Shown: positions 3,881 through 34,324 of the stretch, piece after piece
Position numbering within the stretch: the first letter of the stretch is position 1
Layout: the number at the start of each line of letters is the position of its first letter
Sequence record: NC_019500.1
Reading direction: 5' to 3' (one strand)
DNA from: Escherichia phage Bp7
DNA: 64,000 bases
Position numbers and translations under genes: made by a program
Notes under the pieces: model-generated
The model's input: only the letters and a program-made list of their open reading frames with translations
Databases searched by the model: none
Told to the model about the DNA's origin: nothing

Positions 3881-4849
3881 ATGTACAATATTAAGTGTTT
3901 GACCTCCGCTGAGCAAGTTGAAATCGTTAAGTTATATATTTCTGGTAATTATACTCAGAATGAGTTGGCTGACTGGTACAGTGTATCAGTTGATACAATC
4001 CGTAAAGTCCTGAAAAATGCTAAAGGAGCTGGACAGGCCCAGGTAGTTATTACCGGAAATATCAAAGTAACAGTTCCTAACGAGCCTCGTGAAGTTCCCG
4101 TTGAAGTTACTATTGGCGGCTCTCGCCCTGAAATTATCTGGAACGCGAGTTCTAAATTCGTATCCATCACTGAAGGTCGTACAGTATGGAACACCACTAA
4201 TAAGAACAAACATTTTGATGCCATCGTACAGGCTCTTAAAGAATCTCGTTTCGATGACGCGATTAAACTGATTTCCATTAAAGAAGCCGTTAAGGCCTTT
4301 GTTAAAGGCAACGTTCGTATTGAAGGTGGACGTCTGGTTTACCAAGGCATTGAATTGCGTTCAGGGTTGATTGACCGTATTATCACTTCAATGGAAAACG
4401 GTGAAGACTTCGAATTCTACCTGCCGTTCCTTGAGAACCTGTTAGAAAACCCAAGCGAAAAAGCTGTACAACGTTTGTTCGACTTCTTGGTGGCAAACGA
4501 CATCAAAATTACTGAAGATGGTCACTTTATTACGTGGAAGGTGGTTAACTCCGATTACACCGACTGCCGTACCGGTACGTTTGATAACTCACCAGGCAAA
4601 CCGGTTAAAATGCCTCGTTCTCGTGTAAATGACGATGATGAAGTAACCTGTTCAAGTGGTCTGCACGTTTGCTCTCGTAGTTATATCGGTCATTTTGGTA
4701 ACTCAAGCTGTAAAGTGGTTTCATGTAAAGTTAACCCACGTGATGTTGTTAGTATTCCGGTCGATTACGGTGATGCTAAAATGCGTGTATGTTATTATGA
4801 AGTTCTAGAAGACGTCACCGAACAGTTCGCAAACGAATACAAATACTAA
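3881..4849 (+). CDS. rIIB: rIIB protein
   Basis: 322 aa immediately downstream of rIIA; T-even rIIB size and synteny. Confidence 0.85.
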   Translation: MYNIKCLTSAEQVEIVKLYISGNYTQNELADWYSVSVDTIRKVLKNAKGAGQAQVVITGNIKVTVPNEPREVPVEVTIGGSRPEIIWNASSKFVSITEGRTVWNTTNKNKHFDAIVQALKESRFDDAIKLISIKEAVKAFVKGNVRIEGGRLVYQGIELRSGLIDRIITSMENGEDFEFYLPFLENLLENPSEKAVQRLFDFLVANDIKITEDGHFITWKVVNSDYTDCRTGTFDNSPGKPVKMPRSRVNDDDEVTCSSGLHVCSRSYIGHFGNSSCKVVSCKVNPRDVVSIPVDYGDAKMRVCYYEVLEDVTEQFANEYKY

Positions 4850-4886
4850 ATCAATAACGGAGGCTTCGGCCTCCTAATGAGGAATT

Positions 4887-5084
4887 ATGTTAGGTTACCA
4901 AGCACGTGTAGTTGAAGAATACGACCAGTTGGTTCTTAAAATTAACGCACTAGAAACCTTTATTGAAGGTGGTGTTTTTGAAACTCTTGATATCCGTCAA
5001 CAAGGGTTACTGATTGCACAACTGGATGCGATGGGCGCTTATGCTCATTGTTTAGAGGTTCGTATTTCTTATTTCGGTGAGTAA
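4887..5084 (+). CDS. hypothetical small protein
   Basis: 65-aa ORF after rIIB hairpin (ggaggcttcggcctcc). Confidence 0.35.
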   Translation: MLGYQARVVEEYDQLVLKINALETFIEGGVFETLDIRQQGLLIAQLDAMGAYAHCLEVRISYFGE

Positions 5085-5385
5085 AATGATTAATTACCTG
5101 AATGTCGGTGAACGTGATATCAAGATTTCTAATTTGCGTGGATTCCATAAAGCAGGTACTGTTTATTGTGCTAAGCTCGTTAAACACCCGGGTGATGTTC
5201 ATTACGCTTTTCTAGAATGCGATGAGGTGGTCGAAGGCGAATTTCCTTTAGCAGATTCTGATACTTTAGAACCCGACGACCGAATTTATTACGGTGAACT
5301 TCATATTCGAGGCATTTATGGTGAAGACGAACCCGGGACTACTCCGATTGGCAGCGATGCCGACATTTACCCTGAAGACATCTGA
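5077..5385 (+). CDS. hypothetical protein
   Basis: 102-aa ORF overlapping preceding stop. Confidence 0.4.
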   Translation: MSKMINYLNVGERDIKISNLRGFHKAGTVYCAKLVKHPGDVHYAFLECDEVVEGEFPLADSDTLEPDDRIYYGELHIRGIYGEDEPGTTPIGSDADIYPEDI

Positions 5386-5398
5386 TTTAACAGGTGAA

Positions 5399-5875
5399 AT
5401 GAAGGTTAAGATTAAGGATACCGTATTGTATTCCTTAAGCCAAGACCCGTCCCAAGATAAGAAAGAAGTATTGACTCGGTGTGTCATTGCAACGTATGCC
5501 GAGTACATGGTTGCTGATTGGTTGAAAGGATATGTTAACAGTGGTCTGGAAGACCATGACGACCCTTATACCTATGCATGGGATGTTTTAGCTCATCCTA
5601 TGTATTGTGGACTACGTGTAGAGGTCAAGACCCATCAGTCGGATTCTAAGTGGATTTCCTGCACTACAGGATACTCCGGTGACTTCCCTTATGGAACAGG
5701 GATTAACCTGGGGCCGCTCTTGAATCATAAAGTTGCAGATTGTATAATTATATTCGACACTTCGGTAAATGAGGCAGGCGATGTCCTGTTCACTCCTAAG
5801 TTCTCTGGTGACAGAGAAGCCATCACAAAGCTAGTCCGTAAGAGCAATTACAACGGCTGGTATCTCGCCTTATAA
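5399..5875 (+). CDS. hypothetical protein (158 aa); sits where denB lies in T4 but identity not verifiable
   Basis: ATG 5399 with SD aggtga; in-frame part of six-frame ORF 5294..5875. Confidence 0.45.
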   Translation: MKVKIKDTVLYSLSQDPSQDKKEVLTRCVIATYAEYMVADWLKGYVNSGLEDHDDPYTYAWDVLAHPMYCGLRVEVKTHQSDSKWISCTTGYSGDFPYGTGINLGPLLNHKVADCIIIFDTSVNEAGDVLFTPKFSGDREAITKLVRKSNYNGWYLAL

Positions 5876-5890
5876 TTTTTTAAAATAAGT

Positions 5891-5920
5891 GTTTACATAC
5901 GCCATGGATGGTGTTACTAT
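5891..5920 (+). promoter_or_regulatory. T4-type early promoter (-35 GTTTAC, -10 TACTAT) with conserved leader ...ctatcaactaatgaggag
   Basis: GTTTAC 5891-5896, TACTAT 5915-5920. Confidence 0.55.
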
Positions 5921-5948
5921 CTTCCTATCAACTAATGAGGAGAACAAA

Positions 5949-6215
5949 ATGGATATCAAATTATATTACGCTAAACACAAAGTTACAGGTATGGTTGTTG
6001 CCGCTATGTATGACGCGTCGGGTGAAGGTGATGATGTTACTACAGAGTTATCTCTTTCTGATTGTAAATTTCTCCGTCCCTTAATCGCATCAAAGGAAGA
6101 TTTAGAAAAGCTTATTGATGGAAAACTGGATAATGTTGACGGCATAGATATTCTTTATGACCTCCGCACGGCATTGTACAGGGGATTGATTGAGATAAAA
6201 GAGGTGGTGTTTTGA
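5949..6215 (+). CDS. hypothetical protein (88 aa)
   Basis: ATG 5949 preceded by SD gaggag in conserved leader. Confidence 0.45.
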   Translation: MDIKLYYAKHKVTGMVVAAMYDASGEGDDVTTELSLSDCKFLRPLIASKEDLEKLIDGKLDNVDGIDILYDLRTALYRGLIEIKEVVF

Positions 6216-6305
6216 GTAGCAAAACGTGGTGCCTTATTTGGATGGCCTGTATCCCAGTGATTTGCGTGTGTTTTAGTTTATTGTTGTGGAAATTGGCATA
6301 AATCA

Positions 6306-28144: not shown

Positions 28145-29830
<1,686 letters not shown>

Positions 29831-29891
29831 AAATTCAAATAATCTGTACTCTGTTTTTGGTTATTATGGTTGGGCTGAATTTGGTGCTATA

Positions 29892-30185
29892 ATGAGAGTT
29901 TGCAGAGTTGTTAACAAGTATAAAGAAGACTTTGATGTCAATATCCAACGTGGAACTATGTGGGGTAATCCATTTAAAGTTGGAACCCGCGAGGAAAACA
30001 TCAAGAACTTTAAAGAATACTTTATTGCTAAAATAAAATCGGGCGAAATTAAAAGAGAACATCTTGAAACCCTTAGAGGTATGCGTATAGCGTGTACCTG
30101 TAAACCTAAGGACTGTCATGGGGATGTGATAGCCCTGGTTGTTAACAAACTTTTCAAAGACACGTTCTCATTAGAAGACCTATAA
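29892..30185 (+). CDS. small conserved protein (97 aa) with WGNPF and C-x-C...C-H motifs; nrdA.1/nrdA.2 position
   Basis: MRVCRVVNKY...GTMWGNPFKVG...MRIACTCKPKDCHGDVIALVV; start 29892 chosen from in-frame ATG. Confidence 0.45.
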   Translation: MRVCRVVNKYKEDFDVNIQRGTMWGNPFKVGTREENIKNFKEYFIAKIKSGEIKREHLETLRGMRIACTCKPKDCHGDVIALVVNKLFKDTFSLEDL

Positions 30186-30194
30186 ATATCAGTC

Positions 30195-30233
30195 CATGCT
30201 TAACAGGTTCTATGATAGAATAATTATAGAACC
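30195..30233 (+). promoter_or_regulatory. candidate MotA-dependent middle promoter for nrdA inside an 8-bp inverted repeat ggttctat/atagaacc
   Basis: MotA-box-like TGCTTAA 30197-30203, -10 TAGAAT 30216-30221 at 12-bp spacing; a TATAAATA late-promoter match also lies at 30181-30188. Confidence 0.4.
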
Positions 30234-30251
30234 TAACATATTGAGGAAATT

Positions 30252-32507
30252 ATGCAAGTACAAAAAAGTAGTGGTGTATCCCAAGATTTTGACGCACAAA
30301 AAATTATTAAAGTTCTGACTTGGGGCTGTGAAGGAACCCAAATCGACCCCTATGAATTATACGAAGAAATCAAATCCCATCTTCGTGACGGTATGACTAC
30401 CAAAGATATCCAAAATCTGACTGTTAAGGTAGCAGCCAACCTTATCTCGGTTGAAGAGCCTGATTACCAATATGTTGCTGCAAAAGAATTGATGTTTGCA
30501 CTGCGTAAAGAAGTTTATGGGCAGTTCGAACCACGTAGCTTTATCGACCATATTTCCTATTGTGTTAACGAAGGTAAATATGACCCTGAATTGTTGTCTC
30601 GATATTCTGCAGAAGAAATTACTTTCTTAGAATCTCATATAAAGCATGAACGCGATTTCGAATTGACTTATGCTGGTGCGATGCAGCTTAAAGAGAAATA
30701 TCTGGTTAAAGATAAAACAACCGGTAAAATCTACGAAACCCCTCAGTTCGCTATCATGTGTATTGGTATGGCCTTACACCAAGACGAGCCAGGTAATCGT
30801 TTAGCACATATTATTCGTTTTTATGATGCTGTAAGTACCCGTCAGGTTTCATTACCAACTCCTATTATGGCTGGAGCACGTACACCAACCCGTCAATTTA
30901 GTTCTTGTGTGGTTATTGAAGCAGGCGACTCACTGAAATCTATTAACAAAACTGCTAACTCAATAATTGAATACATTTCTAAACGTGCCGGTATTGGTAT
31001 CAACGTTGGTATGATTCGTGCTGAAGGTTCTCGTATTGGCATGGGCGAAGTCAAGCATACCGGTGTTATTCCATTCTGGAAACATTTCCAGACTGCTGTT
31101 AAATCATGTTCACAAGGTGGAATCCGTGGCGGCGCTGCTACTGCTTATTATCCTATTTGGCATTTGGAAGTTGAAAATCTGCTCGTTCTGAAAAACAACA
31201 AAGGTGTCGATGAGAACCGTATTCGCCATATGGACTACGGAATCCAGATGAACGACCTTATGATGGAACGTTTCGGTAAAAATGATTACATCACGTTGTT
31301 TAGTCCTCATGAAATGGGTGGTGAGCTTTACTATTCTTATTTCGAAGACCAAGACCGTTTCCGTGAATTGTATGAAGCCGCAGAAAAAGACCCTAGTATT
31401 CGTAAGAAACGTATTAAGGCACGCGACCTTTTCGAATTGTTCATGACTGAACGTTCAGGCACTGCACGAATTTATCCTCAGTTCGTTGATAACACTAACA
31501 ACTTCACACCATTTATTCGTGAAAAAGCTCCTATTCGTCAGAGCAACTTGTGTTGTGAAATTGCTATCCCGACTACTGACGTGAATAGTCCTGACGCTGA
31601 AATTGGTTTGTGTACGTTGTCTGCATTCGTATTGGATAACTTCGATTGGCAGGACCAAGACAAAATCAACGAGCTGGCTGAAGTACAAGTACGTGCACTT
31701 GATAACCTGTTGGACTATCAAGATTATCCTGTTCCTGAAGCTCTGAAGGCTAAGAAACGTCGTAACCTGGGTGTTGGTGTTACGAACTACGCCGCTTGGT
31801 TAGCAAGCAACTTTGCTTCTTATGAAGACGCTAACGATTTAACTCATGAATTGTTTGAGAGATTACAATATGGACTTATCCGAGCATCCATCAAGCTGGC
31901 CGAAGAAAAAGGACATTGCGAGTATTATTCAGACACTAAATGGTCTCGAGGCGAATTACCTATCGACTGGTACAATAAAAAGATTGACCAAATCGCAGCC
32001 CCTAACTATGTTTGTGACTGGACGTCGTTGCGGGAAGACTTGGCTAAACATGGCATCCGTAATAGCACATTATCAGCACTTATGCCGTGTGAATCAAGCA
32101 GCCAGGTTTCCAACTCTACAAACGGTATCGAACCTCCACGTGGTCCGGTAAGTATTAAAGAATCTAAAGAAGGTAACTTCCGTCAGGTAGTTCCTAATGT
32201 AGAACATAACCAAGGACTCTACGATTACGCTTGGAGCCTCGCTAAGAAAGGTAATAAACCTTATCTTACCCAAGTGGCAATAGCGTTGAAATGGGTGTGT
32301 CAATCGGCATCAGCTAATACATATTATGACCCACAGATTTTTCCAAAAGGAAAAGTTCCGATGTCGGTAATGCTTGATGACCTGCTGTATTTCTGGTACT
32401 ACGGTGGTAAGAACCTTTACTATCATAATACCCGTGATGGCTCTGGTACTGATGACTATGAAATCGAAACTCCTAAAGCCGATGATTGTGCAGCTTGTAA
32501 GCTTTAA
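30252..32507 (+). CDS. nrdA: ribonucleotide reductase large subunit
   Basis: 751 aa; N-terminal ATP-cone, class Ia catalytic motifs (NLCCEI, C-terminal Cys pair CAACKL). Confidence 0.9.
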   Translation: MQVQKSSGVSQDFDAQKIIKVLTWGCEGTQIDPYELYEEIKSHLRDGMTTKDIQNLTVKVAANLISVEEPDYQYVAAKELMFALRKEVYGQFEPRSFIDHISYCVNEGKYDPELLSRYSAEEITFLESHIKHERDFELTYAGAMQLKEKYLVKDKTTGKIYETPQFAIMCIGMALHQDEPGNRLAHIIRFYDAVSTRQVSLPTPIMAGARTPTRQFSSCVVIEAGDSLKSINKTANSIIEYISKRAGIGINVGMIRAEGSRIGMGEVKHTGVIPFWKHFQTAVKSCSQGGIRGGAATAYYPIWHLEVENLLVLKNNKGVDENRIRHMDYGIQMNDLMMERFGKNDYITLFSPHEMGGELYYSYFEDQDRFRELYEAAEKDPSIRKKRIKARDLFELFMTERSGTARIYPQFVDNTNNFTPFIREKAPIRQSNLCCEIAIPTTDVNSPDAEIGLCTLSAFVLDNFDWQDQDKINELAEVQVRALDNLLDYQDYPVPEALKAKKRRNLGVGVTNYAAWLASNFASYEDANDLTHELFERLQYGLIRASIKLAEEKGHCEYYSDTKWSRGELPIDWYNKKIDQIAAPNYVCDWTSLREDLAKHGIRNSTLSALMPCESSSQVSNSTNGIEPPRGPVSIKESKEGNFRQVVPNVEHNQGLYDYAWSLAKKGNKPYLTQVAIALKWVCQSASANTYYDPQIFPKGKVPMSVMLDDLLYFWYYGGKNLYYHNTRDGSGTDDYEIETPKADDCAACKL

Positions 32508-32561: not shown

Positions 32562-33236
32562 ATGTCTACAGTTTTTAATACTACCCCAGTTGATGTTTTA
32601 GTCGAGCCGATGTTCTTTGGTTCAGGATTAGGTATCGCCCGTTATGATATCCAACGTCATAAAGTGTTCGAAGAGCTTTGTGAAAAGCAACTATCATTTT
32701 TCTGGCGTCCAGAGGAAGTTAACTTGATGATGGACTCTGCGCAGTTAATAAGCTTCCAGAGTTCCAACAAAATATATTTACCAATAACTTGAAATATCAG
32801 TCGCTTTTGGACAGTATTCAGGGCCGGGCTCCTTCTGCTGCACTCCAAGCCTTGATTTCTGACCCTAGCCTTGATACATGGGTGGCAACATGGACCTTTA
32901 GTGAAACTATTCACTCGCGTTCGTATACCCATATCATGCGTAACCTCTATACAGACCCATCTAAGGTATTTGATGAAATTCTGTTAGATGACGCTATCAT
33001 GAAGCGCGCTGAATCCATTGGTCGTTATTATGATGACGTTATTGAGAAAACTAGATATTGGCAGAATGCTAAAGCTGATATTGAGTACCAAAAAGAAATT
33101 AACGCAGACGAAGATGATATTGAAGATGCCATAGAGCATGAGATGTATTGGAAACGTGAACTGATGCGTTCTCTTTATCTCTGTTTGCATGTTATCAATG
33201 CCTTAGAAGCTATTCGTTTTTATGTATCTTTTGCGT
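32562..33236 (+). CDS. nrdB: ribonucleotide reductase small subunit, exon 1; apparent 1-nt frameshift near 32723-32750 (ORFs 32562..32792 and 32789..33238)
   Basis: N-terminus ...FFWRPEEV in one frame; downstream NrdB motifs [35 protein letters not shown] in the -1 frame; exon ends with U at 33236. Confidence 0.8.
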
Positions 33237-33320
33237 AAAATGCGCCTTTAAACGGTAACGTTTATCGAAAACTCCTTTAATTGCTGGAAAGTCCTTTATA
33301 GGAAAACTAGCAGCCAAGGT

Positions 33321-33354
33321 TTTGCTTGCACCTTTAATTAGTATAATATAAATA
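33321..33354 (+). promoter_or_regulatory. candidate middle (MotA-box-like + TATAAT) and late (TATAAATA) promoters upstream of the intron endonuclease ORF
   Basis: tttgcttgca 33321-33330, TATAAT 33342-33347, TATAAATA 33347-33354, SD aagagga 33367-33373. Confidence 0.35.
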
Positions 33355-33381
33355 TGATTATACTTTTAAGAGGATGCACAA

Positions 33382-34188
33382 TTGAACTATAGAAAAATTT
33401 GGATAGATGCTAACGGACCTATACCTAAAGATTCTGATGGAAGAACATACGAAATCCATCATAAAGACGGTAACCGTGAAAATAATGATTTAGATAATTT
33501 GATGTGCCTTTCTATACAGGAACATTATGATATACATTTAGCTCAAAAAGATTACCAGGCTTGTCATGCTATAAAGCTTAGAATGAAATATTCTCCTGAA
33601 GAAATTTCTGAATTAGCTTCTAAAGCCGCAAAATCTAGAGAAATCCAGATTTTTAATATCCCTGAAGTACGAGCTAAAAATATTGCCTCTATTAAATCTA
33701 AGATAGAAAATGGTACATTTCATCTTTTAGACGGTGAAATACAGCGTAAATCTAATTTAAATAGAGTTGCATTAGGTATACATAATTTCTCTAGAGGAGC
33801 CCATGCAAAAGTTAAAGAACGCAATATTGCAGCTATAAAAGAAGGTACTCATGTATTTTGCGGTGGTAAAATGCAGTCAGAAACTCAATCAAAACGGGTA
33901 AATGACGGTTCACATCATTTCTTGTCAGAAGACCATAAGAAAAGAACATCAGCAAAAACATTAGAAATGGTTAAGAACGGGACCCATCCTGCACAAAAAG
34001 AAATCACATGTGATTTCTGCGGTCACATTGGTAAAGGTCCTGGATTTTATCTAAAACATAATGACAGATGTAAATTAAATCCAAATAGAATTCAATTGAA
34101 TTGTCCATATTGTGATAAGAAAGATTTATCACCATCAACATATAAACGATGGCACGGCGACAATTGCAAAGCAAGGTTCAACGACTAG
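33382..34188 (+). CDS. HNH-family homing endonuclease (I-TevIII-like), intron-encoded; apparent TTG start
   Basis: 268 aa; N-terminal HNH motif EIHHKDGNRENNDLDNLMCLS..EH and C-terminal Cys/His-rich region (CDFCGH, CPYCDK); lies in the nrdB intron as I-TevIII does. Confidence 0.8.
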   Translation: MNYRKIWIDANGPIPKDSDGRTYEIHHKDGNRENNDLDNLMCLSIQEHYDIHLAQKDYQACHAIKLRMKYSPEEISELASKAAKSREIQIFNIPEVRAKNIASIKSKIENGTFHLLDGEIQRKSNLNRVALGIHNFSRGAHAKVKERNIAAIKEGTHVFCGGKMQSETQSKRVNDGSHHFLSEDHKKRTSAKTLEMVKNGTHPAQKEITCDFCGHIGKGPGFYLKHNDRCKLNPNRIQLNCPYCDKKDLSPSTYKRWHGDNCKARFND

Positions 34189-34324
34189 TCTTCGGACGTA
34201 GGGTCAAGCGACTCGAAATGGGGAGAATCCCTCTGGGATTGTGATATAGTCTGGTCTGCATAGTAATATGTAGCAGTTCATAAGAGAACGGGTTGAGAAT
34301 TAGCGAGCTCAATCGAACATAACG

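Follow-up and report, generated by a model that had tools for sequence, protein, structure and literature searches.

A conserved DUF4326 gene between td and nrdA of a T4-like Dhakavirus, the ortholog of T4 nrdA.1

The CDS at 29892..30185 (+) is located between td and nrdA in a stretch of DNA from a T4-like Dhakavirus (the window, meaning the whole 64-kb stretch that was analysed). It is a genuine early/middle gene of this phage, and its 97-aa product, MRVCRVVNKYKEDFDVNIQRGTMWGNPFKVGTREENIKNFKEYFIAKIKSGEIKREHLETLRGMRIACTCKPKDCHGDVIALVVNKLFKDTFSLEDL, is a member of an uncharacterised and already catalogued protein family (DUF4326 / T4 NrdA.1). For the window the annotation can be regarded as settled, with a real gene, a start at 29892 and a product that is the NrdA.1/DUF4326 ortholog, and nothing new is added there. 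DUF4326 itself is a very large family that has no solved structure and only predictions of function, even though T4, the most thoroughly studied phage, carries a member. A literature search with DUF4326, 'nrdA.1' and PF14216 gave no functional study or assay, only predictions (PMC9503650, PMC7824862).

The gene order is frd-td-X-nrdA-nrdB, where X is the DUF4326 gene. The upstream neighbour td (thymidylate synthase, 28970..29830, +) probably shares a transcription unit with X, and nrdA (class Ia ribonucleotide reductase large subunit, 30252..32507, +) is the downstream neighbour, both being assigned from the ORF list and the annotation of relatives. The ORF ends with a TAA at 30183-30185. Compared with JS98 it has 12 synonymous changes and one non-synonymous (pS 0.21, pN 0.004), and it is under strong purifying selection. 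In IME540, which is 99.8% identical, the C75 codon (30114-30116) is changed from TGT to TGA, and the gene may therefore be dispensable in culture.

Family membership and signature residues

The Pfam search, suggested in the earlier note as a check that would speak against the proposed family if there was no hit, matched DUF4326 (PF14216) with E 6e-22 and 78.5 bits over profile positions 1-81 of 82, where the cut-off is 25 bits. There is no other Pfam match at E <= 1 in the 97-aa protein. It also matches PHROG 464 (E 1.4e-45), and relatives were found by tblastn in 2110 phage records. The family comprises 22,656 clusters at 50% identity (E <= 1e-3) and is spread over phages, giant viruses, bacteria and archaea.

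The two motifs from which the earlier note started, WGNPF and CTCKPKDCH, are present in the translation at residues 24-28 (nt 29961-29975) and 68-76 (nt 30093-30119) and are parts of the family signature (I)GR(G), (W)GNP(F), C-x-C-(K)-P-x-x-C-H-G-D, which is found in full (R20, G25-N26-P27 and C68 to D78). The codons for R20-G-T-M-W-G-N-P-F28 (29949..29975, +) correspond to the 'GRG..WGNPF' loop, which in the AF2 model leads from strand 2 to helix 1, and among 351 domain instances R20 is conserved in 346, G25 in 324, N26 in 347 and P27 in 316. The signature loop proper, C68-T-C70-K-P72-K-D-C75-H76-G77-D78, is encoded by 30093..30125 (+) and delimited by conservation together with the AF2 secondary structure. 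Here C68 is found in 350/350, C70 in 348/348, C75 in 350/350, H76 in 348/350 and P72 in 347/350, and three cysteines and one histidine are thus essentially invariant across the 351 domain instances.

T4-type NrdA.1 occupies the same slot between td and nrdA in the same orientation, and RB14 and other Tequatrovirus NrdA.1 proteins are 66% identical to the window protein with 99% coverage; the orthologs in JS98, WG01 and PSD9 are annotated as NrdA.1-like. Judged by sequence and synteny the window protein is the T4 NrdA.1 ortholog. The T4 gene name nrdA.1 was not given in the earlier note, nor was the mini-ORF described below. The arrangement is td-nrdA.2-nrdA.1-nrdA in the Tequatrovirus RB14, with the nrdA.1 stop overlapping the nrdA start, whereas in the window it is td-miniORF-X-nrdA, without nrdA.2 and with a 66-nt spacer 3' of the gene containing a MotA-type promoter-like site. 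Compared with the family at large the window protein is a minimal stand-alone form without SLOG, Macro, NADAR, RNase H or Dam partners, and otherwise shows no essential difference. Two database labels, 'ribonucleotide reductase NrdA-like' for phrog_24867 and 'RNR alpha subunit' for ESCO32, were rejected; the protein has no RNR domain, and the labels look like name propagation from 'NrdA.1'.

Predicted structure and remote similarities

The AlphaFold (AF2) model of the 97-aa protein has a pLDDT of 95.8 and predicts a compact three-strand alpha/beta domain, with a strand at 65-68 that ends at C68, a loop at 69-75 and a helix at 76-87. The near-invariant residues R20, G25-N26-P27, R33 and C68-x-C70-K-P72-x-x-C75-H76-G-D78 are all predicted to lie on loops after strands. 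With Foldseek there were 27 matches in BFVD at E <= 1e-3, the named ones mostly DUF4326 and several nameless or otherwise labelled, and superposition on other, non-identical viral DUF4326 models in BFVD gave TM values of 0.7-0.84. Fusions with SLOG (DUF2493) and a 'NADAR domain with protein tyrosine phosphatase' are among the matches, and a DUF488 protein is found at rank 50 with a probability of 0.20. Against the PDB (350,542 chains) Foldseek gave nothing at E < 0.5, the best E being 0.58, and therefore no fold is assigned; sequence and profile searches of the PDB likewise gave nothing significant. The best PDB matches, ComFB 4wai (E 0.94) and TPR designs (E ~0.2), were dismissed as chance, and the NCBIfam ComFB model NF052654 (E 0.005, 16.8 bits versus a cut-off of 120) was rejected.

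The family has been placed in the Cys-phosphatase/rhodanese superfamily (Iyer et al. 2022, PMC9503650). In Cys phosphatases and rhodaneses (HCX5R P-loop; RapZ C-terminal domain) the invariant active-site Cys closes a beta-strand and a short loop leads on to a helix, an arrangement that the window protein may share according to its AF2 secondary structure; they use one Cys and an Arg, whereas the window protein has three invariant Cys and a His, and only three strands. The CX5R signature is absent from the window protein, where C68+6 is D74 and C70+6 is H76 and the loop has no Arg, and the invariant R20 sits in another loop than the Cys signature. In the PDB search BVP (1yn9, E 6.5) and PIR1 (4nyh, E 8.5) appeared at noise level with TM 0.17-0.22, and RapZ was not listed. 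The superfamily claim is weakened only, because a very remote Rossmannoid relationship may escape Foldseek.

Another possible relative is DUF488 (PF04343, the E. coli YeaO family), which shares a C...C...P-x-x-C-H-(G/R)-x-(V/L)-(I/V) signature ahead of a helix, although it is longer than DUF4326 and has other N-terminal motifs. The profile similarity is weak: hhalign aligned the two families over 57 columns including the Cys-His signature with E 1.4e-3 and a probability of only 17%, pairing CxCKPxxCHGDVI of DUF4326 with CSEHEPHxCHRRLV of DUF488. The 3Cys-1His 2Fe-2S motif of CDGSH (mitoNEET-type) domains is C-X-C-X2-(S/T)-X3-P-X-C-D-G-(S/A/T)-H. A CDGSH domain was rejected, since the spacing in the window protein is C-X-C-X4-C-H and the zf-CDGSH HMM did not match, and so was a thioredoxin, glutaredoxin or NrdH redoxin, for which there was no Pfam match and no PDB fold match, the motif being CxC and not CxxC.

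Genomic associations and possible functions

The search for related DUF4326 loci was based on a 10-sequence sub-alignment. The SLOG nucleotide-binding domain is fused to DUF4326 in P0125, P0126 and P0140 and in 18 of 79 cellular DUF4326 proteins; other fusion partners are RNase H, Dam methylase and RNA polymerase. At the cellular loci DUF488 is the commonest neighbour (15/79), DuOB (dual OB fold) is found at 16/79, and there is one NADAR neighbour. About 15 of the 79 loci have a DuOB-DUF488-mSLOG-DUF4326 operon, whose DuOB and DUF488 proteins match the PADLOC candidate defence proteins PDC-M45A and PDC-M45C; the window protein itself has 0 matches to the PADLOC-DB v2 HMMs. Published work predicts Macro and NADAR fusions of DUF4326, with viral fusions mainly to ADP-ribose-processing domains (PMC9503650), and homologues of the SLOG anti-Avs protein ORF83 bear a C-terminal DUF4326 (bioRxiv 10.1101/2025.06.06.658234). 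The suggestion in the earlier note of an uncharacterised small-protein family near nucleotide-metabolism or ADP-ribose-related genes is borne out by the full-length DUF4326 match, the SLOG fusions, the NADAR neighbour and the position between frd-td and nrdA-nrdB. Genes for three Alt-like ADP-ribosyltransferases, for RnlA and for PseT lie in one strand block with the ortholog in WG01, a close relative.

From the associations with SLOG, the DuOB-DUF488 operon and Macro/NADAR, the domain might be an enzyme acting on phosphorylated ribose, either of ADP-ribose- and nucleotide-derived molecules or of nucleic-acid ends. With considerable doubt we favour the former, in which the window protein would be a small phospho-transfer or phospho-hydrolase enzyme that depends on a thiol and removes or passes on the ribose-bound phosphate of a soluble ADP-ribose- or nucleotide-derived molecule. 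It would be of the rhodanese/Cys-phosphatase-like 'RapZ-C/DUF488/DUF4326' kind, its substrates could be ADP-ribose phosphates or the ribose-5-phosphate-type products of SLOG, Macro, NADAR and Nudix enzymes, and the effect would be that NAD+- or nucleotide-derived products of the infection or of host immunity are cleared or neutralised. Catalysis, nucleophile, substrate and biological role are in this way all inferred. For a thiol enzyme we count the modelled signature loop, which runs from the end of a strand (C68) to the beginning of a helix (H76) and so would have the geometry of a Cys-phosphatase/rhodanese active-site loop, the invariant Cys, His, Arg and Asn in the 351 instances, the hhalign pairing with DUF488, the SLOG fusions and DUF488/DuOB neighbours, and the Alt-like ADP-ribosyltransferases, RnlA and PseT of WG01. 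Against it we count the absent CX5R, the lack of a PDB fold match and the 17% probability for DUF488. The fusion evidence is indirect, because the window phage protein is stand-alone.

The same domain chemistry could instead be directed at a DNA or RNA end, where a terminal phosphate or sugar-phosphate would be trimmed or transferred, aiding RNA/DNA repair or undoing an end modification made by the host defence. This is rather unlikely in our estimation, but the DuOB-DUF488-mSLOG-DUF4326 operon with its PDC-M45A/PDC-M45C matches and the fusions to RNase H, Dam methylase and RNA polymerase point to it, and phage DUF4326 genes are often found near rnlA, pseT, denA or tRNA genes. Burroughs and Aravind (2023) have reportedly predicted DNA-end processing for part of the RapZ-C-DUF488-DUF4326 clade. 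However, the phage protein is not joined to a nucleic-acid-binding domain, and the portion of the WG01 annotation equivalent to about 50 kb of the 64-kb window has no gene for a DuOB, DUF488 or SLOG partner. In T4-like phages the vicinity of RNA-repair genes has been inherited as synteny and is not independent evidence. The published viral fusions, mainly to ADP-ribose-processing domains (PMC9503650), also speak against nucleic-acid ends as the substrate.

With three invariant Cys and a His in a stretch of nine residues, the cluster is as compatible with a metal site as with a catalytic loop. C-x-C-x4-C-H could thus be a Zn or Fe-S site in a non-catalytic adaptor or sensor that binds nucleotide, nucleic acid or protein, for instance the ribonucleotide reductase/dNTP-synthesis complex, which we likewise hold to be on the improbable side. 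C68, C70 and C75 (invariant in 348-350 instances) and H76 (348/350) are conserved more strictly than R20 or N26, DUF488 has the same Cys/Cys/Cys-His arrangement, a knuckle plus a helix N-terminus, as in the AF2 secondary structure, is a common Zn-site geometry, and there is no similarity to any solved enzyme, the sole sub-threshold likeness in PDB and NCBIfam being the ComFB Cys cluster, in neither case significant. The gene also adjoins RNR genes in three arrangements (td-X-nrdA, nrdB-X-denA and nrdD-X-nrdG). On the other hand adjacent Cys and His seldom ligate one metal ion, the invariant R20, N26, R33 and D78, which are not part of the cluster, hint at a ligand or an active site, DUF4326 is recurrently fused to enzymes and nucleotide-binding SLOG domains, and a metal site would not preclude catalysis. 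Among 12 sampled phage lineages outside the T4/Dhakavirus arrangement, RNR adjacency was seen only in Klebsiella phage Tauntaun, which has a T4-like gene order, and in jumbo phage 121Q. As it is absent in 11 other sampled lineages, it is mostly Tevenvirinae synteny, and the DUF4326-RNR link is treated here as synteny and not as evidence of function. Two distant DUF4326 members lie in jumbo-phage gene contexts that are uninformative.

A more specific proposal is that the stand-alone phage DUF4326 proteins (T4 NrdA.1 and the window ortholog) are counter-defence enzymes that would use their Cys3-His loop to break down a phosphorylated ribose compound, be it a signal or a by-product in NAD+/nucleotide-based immunity, or to reverse the nucleic-acid-end modification made by the cellular DuOB-DUF488-SLOG-DUF4326 (PDC-M45) candidate defence system. 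We consider it decidedly unlikely as formulated, but if true it would give the first function and a new type of catalytic loop for a family of >22,000 sequence clusters. With T4 nrdA.1 knockouts and a soluble protein of 97 aa, DUF4326 would be a cheap and tractable entry to the chemistry, on NAD+/ADP-ribose or on nucleic-acid ends, that is predicted to play a part when phage and host are in conflict.

A thiol-disulfide redox helper of the neighbouring ribonucleotide reductase, analogous to NrdH, glutaredoxin or YfaE, would be compatible with the CxC motif plus a third Cys and with the location beside nrdA/nrdB in T4-like phages and between nrdD and nrdG in 121Q, but is very improbable, as there is no thioredoxin, glutaredoxin or ferredoxin Pfam match and no matching fold, most DUF4326 genes are away from RNR and none of the top neighbour families at the 79 cellular loci is RNR-related. 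Moreover, T4-type phages already encode the glutaredoxin-like NrdC.

Start codon, mini-ORF and transcription signals

The stop-to-stop frame of the DUF4326 ORF has its first ATG at 29766 and, as remarked in the earlier note, shares the 3' end of td (the last 65 nt) in a different frame. From the td stop to 29892 no in-frame ATG, GTG or TTG is present in the sequence as read. The N-termini of homologues, M-(R/K)-x-C-(R/K)-VVNKY, agree with a start at 29892, in-frame stops are located 0-3 codons 5' of the equivalent Met in Gaprivervirus RZ and Karamvirus KMB17, and the 294-nt CDS is used by four independent annotations and by RefSeq WG01. Together with the 12:1 ratio of synonymous to non-synonymous changes this comparison confirms ATG 29892 as the translation start, which the earlier note had proposed as an inference. 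A weak Shine-Dalgarno-like GGTG (29883..29886, +), 5 nt 5' of the ATG, might serve as ribosomal binding site. That the frame is open by chance, or that the true product is a 139-aa form from 29766 inside td, as in the long annotations of IME540 and JS98, the 131-aa cluster P0001 and the 139-aa BFVD entry A0A9E7CMF5, can practically be dismissed, since the family E value and the strong purifying selection speak against chance, the Pfam match begins at residue 46 of the long form, and the extension varies freely among Dhakaviruses (nucleotide changes between the window and JS98 alter its amino acids), is closed by the stops in RZ and KMB17 and has its nucleotides conserved in another frame, that of a mini-ORF.

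This mini-ORF (29827..29892, +) is an unannotated hydrophobic frame of 21 codons in the td/DUF4326 spacer, recognised by its conservation among relatives. The td stop and the ATG of the mini-ORF overlap (ATGA), as do its TAA and the DUF4326 ATG (TAATG), a stop/start overlap retained in Gaprivervirus RZ as ATGA. The full-length frame is kept in 79 Dhakavirus/Gaprivervirus records, and the changes within it are synonymous in MN04 (3/3) and PSD9 (1/1). It is probably a translational-coupling element or a small membrane peptide, and translation from ATG 29892 would then be coupled to it, the mini-ORF bridging the td stop and the ATG.

The DUF4326 gene should be transcribed rightward together with td. 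A pattern scan gave a T4 middle-promoter-like MotA-box with a -10 region 5' of td (28909..28933, +), a candidate promoter for td, the mini-ORF and nrdA.1, and a second one (TGCTTAA-N12-TAGAAT, 30197..30221, +) in the 66-nt spacer 5' of nrdA, which might delimit the unit on its downstream side. The window has 11 occurrences of the pattern TGCTTNA-N11-13-TANNNT (10 on the + strand) where 3.35 are expected, and motA is present in WG01. The extended -10 TGcTATAAT over the start codon (29885-29893) is not claimed as a promoter, because it is not conserved in Gaprivervirus RZ and is located within the mini-ORF coding sequence. An Rfam scan of the whole window at the gathering threshold gave no matches. 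As a by-product the mini-ORF bears on the annotation of the td/DUF4326 spacer, where gene callers extend the DUF4326 gene into td because this conserved frame occupies it.

Family membership, conservation and predicted fold

The ORF at 29892–30185 on the + strand, with 97 codons and a stop, encodes a member of DUF4326 (Pfam PF14216), matched over profile positions 1–81 of 82 with E 6e-22 and 78.5 bits (cut-off 25), and also matches PHROG 464, a family of unknown function, with E 1.4e-45. An earlier note had read here a small Cys/His-motif protein of a family often encoded near nucleotide-metabolism or ADP-ribose-related genes; its two motifs are present, WGNPF at residues 24–28 and C-T-C-K-P-K-D-C-H at residues 68–76. 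What the note saw is confirmed, and its interpretation is supported. A DUF4326 profile search of 1.84 billion representatives gave 22,656 clusters at E ≤ 1e-3 and 11,119 at E ≤ 1e-10. Counted over 351 aligned domain instances, C68 and C75 are conserved in 350/350 and C70 in 348/348, followed by H76 (348/350), P72 (347/350), N26 (347/351) and R20 (346/351), and at least 90% conservation is seen for G25, P27, R33, G77 and D78.

The AlphaFold2 model, built from a 66-sequence alignment, has a pLDDT of 95.8 and a pTM of 0.87, with predicted strands at residues 5–8, about 15–16 and 65–68, and helices at 33–50, 55–59 and 76–87. The Cys/His signature would be the loop that joins strand 3, at its end (C68), to the last helix, at its first turn (H76). 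This predicted fold is confident but unmatched: no solved structure resembles it in Foldseek against PDB (best E 0.58, with the Cys-phosphatases 1yn9 and 4nyh at E 6.5–8.5 only), and phmmer and hmmsearch gave no significant PDB sequence matches. The named significant matches of the model in BFVD are mostly DUF4326 proteins, some of them fusions with SLOG (DUF2493) or with a 'NADAR domain with protein tyrosine phosphatase'. That the three cysteines never vary and that no enzyme fold is matched would favour a Cys3-His metal module (Zn or Fe-S) that serves as adaptor or sensor, a reading we consider unlikely and which is compatible with catalysis.

Fusions, cellular operon and proposed activity

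DUF4326 has an association network of fusions and neighbours. In multidomain representatives DUF4326 is joined to a SLOG (YAcAr), RNase H, Dam methylase or RNA-polymerase domain, or occurs in tandem copies, and the fusions in a sample of 79 bacterial and archaeal loci are mSLOG-DUF4326 (n=17), DUF5131 (n=2) and YpsA-SLOG (n=1). The commonest neighbours in the same 79 loci are DUF488 (12 at ±1 and 3 at ±2) and the dual OB-fold domain DuOB (4 at ±1 and 12 at ±2), followed by calcineurin-like phosphoesterase (n=5) and DUF5131 (n=4), and photolyases (n=2), UDGs (n=2) and NADAR (n=1) are rarer. From the DUF488 and DuOB pattern a conserved operon DuOB - DUF488 - mSLOG-DUF4326 was recognised in Gammaproteobacteria (loci L050, L052, L054, L055, L062, L072, L075, L078, L085, L087, L089 and L097, around 4400–6250 in most). 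In PADLOC, DuOB and DUF488 are matched by PDC-M45A and PDC-M45C of a candidate defence system, PDC-M45, with E 3.9e-39 and 7.8e-70. The cellular operon with this overlap is a by-product worth noting; PADLOC gave no match for the DUF4326 proteins themselves, including mSLOG-DUF4326, the third gene of the operon.

DUF488 has the signature C-L-L-C-S-E-H-E-P-H-x-C-H-R-R-L-V, similar to C-x-C-K-P-x-x-C-H-G-D-V-I of DUF4326, and hhalign aligns the two signatures with E 1.4e-3 and a weak probability of 17%. Burroughs and Aravind (2023) reportedly define a 'RapZ-C-DUF488-DUF4326 clade', for which they predict activities on sugar phosphates and DNA ends. Fusions of DUF4326 with SLOG, Macro and NADAR have been published, together with the prediction that the domain processes terminal ribose phosphates of ADP-ribose or its breakdown products (Iyer et al. 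2022, PMC9503650), and a jumbo-phage survey from the same group also ties it to DNA replication and R-M components (PMC7824862). Eukaryotic-virus homologues of the SLOG-like anti-Avs ORF83 have a C-terminal DUF4326 (2025 preprint, bioRxiv 10.1101/2025.06.06.658234).

The best-supported reading, which we hold tentatively, is that of a small domain with thiol-dependent phospho-transfer or hydrolase activity, whose target would be the ribose-attached phosphate of soluble ADP-ribose- or nucleotide-derived molecules; the catalytic steps are predicted. The protein would be made in the early or middle period beside enzymes of nucleotide metabolism and RNA repair, and the close relative WG01 has three Alt-like ADP-ribosyltransferases in the same strand block. 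The same phospho-chemistry might instead be directed at nucleic-acid termini, as the DuOB operon and the fusions with RNase H and Dam would suggest, and this we regard as rather improbable. The remaining interest lies in a family that is huge, structurally unmatched and encoded by T4.

Orthology to NrdA.1 and the ribonucleotide reductase genes

The phage is a T4-like Dhakavirus, and over the 801 nt surrounding the ORF it shares 99.8% identity with IME540 and 90–99.6% with WG01, QL01, JS98 and others. The gene order is gp32-frd-td-X-nrdA-nrdB-denA-rnlA, where X is the DUF4326 ORF, on a single strand throughout. Relatives of the ORF were found by tblastn in 2110 phage records; the counterpart in RB14 and similar T4-type phages is 66% identical and carries the annotation nrdA.1, with the order td-nrdA.2-nrdA.1-nrdA in RB14, and the Dhakavirus gene is labelled NrdA.1-like in JS98, WG01 and PSD9. 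The 97-aa protein is therefore orthologous to T4 NrdA.1. As the product of a named gene, known before and annotated in databases as part of an uncharacterised family, it is not novel, and full-text searches found no functional study of nrdA.1, DUF4326 or PF14216. A comparison of RB14 (L003), RZ (L022) and KMB17 (L023) shows a cassette of variable content between td and nrdA, in which only the DUF4326 gene is constant. RB14 has small nrdA.2-like ORFs 5' of nrdA.1, RZ has them 3' of it, and the window has none; RZ and KMB17 have an additional related ORF of 65–77 aa directly 3' of td.

Three gene orders place the gene beside ribonucleotide reductase (RNR) genes: T4 and Dhakavirus have td-X-nrdA, Klebsiella phage Tauntaun has nrdB-X-denA (gene at 3968–4297 of locus L013), and the jumbo phage 121Q has nrdD-X-nrdG (class III RNR; gene at 3983–4315 of locus L012), the latter two at sites other than that of T4. 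RNR adjacency is absent in ten more phages of the sample, P46FS4, ESCO32, Pseudomonas MK, Vibrio K566, Erwinia SNUABM_32, Pectobacterium DU_PP_V, phiN3, Chazly21, PaMx28 and Aeromonas AS-yj, two metagenomic jumbo-phage contexts show no RNR link, and no RNR family is among the top neighbours in the 79 cellular loci. The link is therefore regarded as largely inherited synteny, and a role as RNR redox helper is very improbable. The labels 'NrdA-like' and 'RNR alpha subunit' on some homologues are apparently name propagation.

In IME540 the codon of the invariant C75 (window 30114–30116) is changed from TGT to TGA, cutting the protein to 74 aa. This could be a sequencing error, or else a natural knockout and a sign that the gene is dispensable in culture, and it tempers the importance of the gene. 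Further downstream, nrdB exon 1 (32562–33235) has a one-base deletion at ~32745 in a T run (TTT>TT versus IME540 and JS98), so that the N-terminal 72 residues and residues 73–235 are in different frames, by sequencing error or in a pseudogene. An insertion of 1089 nt (33236–34324), missing from IME540, WG01 and JS98, interrupts nrdB between residues 235 and 237 (IME540 protein numbering) and contains an HNH endonuclease ORF of 268 aa (33382–34188, +). It is presumably similar to the group I intron, with I-TevIII, in the nrdB of T-even phages; no Rfam match was obtained at the gathering threshold.

Start of the gene, spacer mini-ORF and candidate expression signals

Read from stop to stop, the frame of the ORF opens earlier, with an ATG at 29766, and shares the final 65 nt of td (28970–29830, +), which is read in another frame; the earlier note had seen that the two overlap. 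In the resulting 139-aa form the DUF4326 match starts only from residue 46, and no in-frame ATG, GTG or TTG was read between the td stop and 29892. The N-terminus M-(R/K)-x-C-(R/K)-V-V-N-K-Y is common to homologues of many phages, Gaprivervirus RZ and Karamvirus KMB17 have an in-frame stop 0–3 codons 5' of the homologous start Met, and the 294-nt CDS is annotated by RefSeq WG01 and four independent submitters. Between the window and JS98 the ORF has 12 synonymous and 1 non-synonymous changes (pS 0.21, pN 0.004), and the 61 nt 5' of it have 9 differences, nearly all amino-acid-changing in its frame. The single non-synonymous change, D30V (codon 29979–29981, GAT>GTT), is private to the window and its sole amino-acid difference from the six other Dhakavirus orthologs compared (IME540 being also truncated at C75); residue 30 is variable across the wider family. 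By homologue N-termini, upstream stops, annotations and substitution pattern the gene is real and under selection, the start at 29892, which the note had inferred, has good support, and the extension into td is non-coding; there is hardly any chance of an artefact or a longer protein.

The spacer between td and the DUF4326 gene contains, in the third frame, a hydrophobic mini-ORF of 21 codons (29827–29892, +), conserved and unannotated, and worth noting as a by-product. At its 5' end the ATG overlaps the stop of td (ATGA) and at its 3' end the TAA overlaps the DUF4326 ATG (TAATG); a stop/start overlap is preserved in RZ as ATGA. The mini-ORF is complete in 79 Dhakavirus and Gaprivervirus records, separately annotated in none of them, and the substitutions are synonymous in its own frame in MN04 (3/3) and PSD9 (1/1), with 3 synonymous and 3 conservative changes in JS98 and dhabil. 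These overlaps and the conservation, with a weak SD-like GGTG at 29883–29886 (+) 5' of the DUF4326 ATG, suggest translational coupling from td via the mini-ORF to DUF4326.

No terminator-like site was found on the + strand between td and nrdA. A search for MotA-type patterns (TGCTTNA box, 11–13 nt, then TANNNT) gave 11 in the window versus 3.35 expected, 10 of the 11 on the + strand, and MotA is encoded by WG01. Two of these T4 middle-promoter-like sites, at 28909–28933 (+) just before td and at 30197–30221 (+) in the 66-nt spacer before nrdA, flank the td-mini-ORF-DUF4326 unit.
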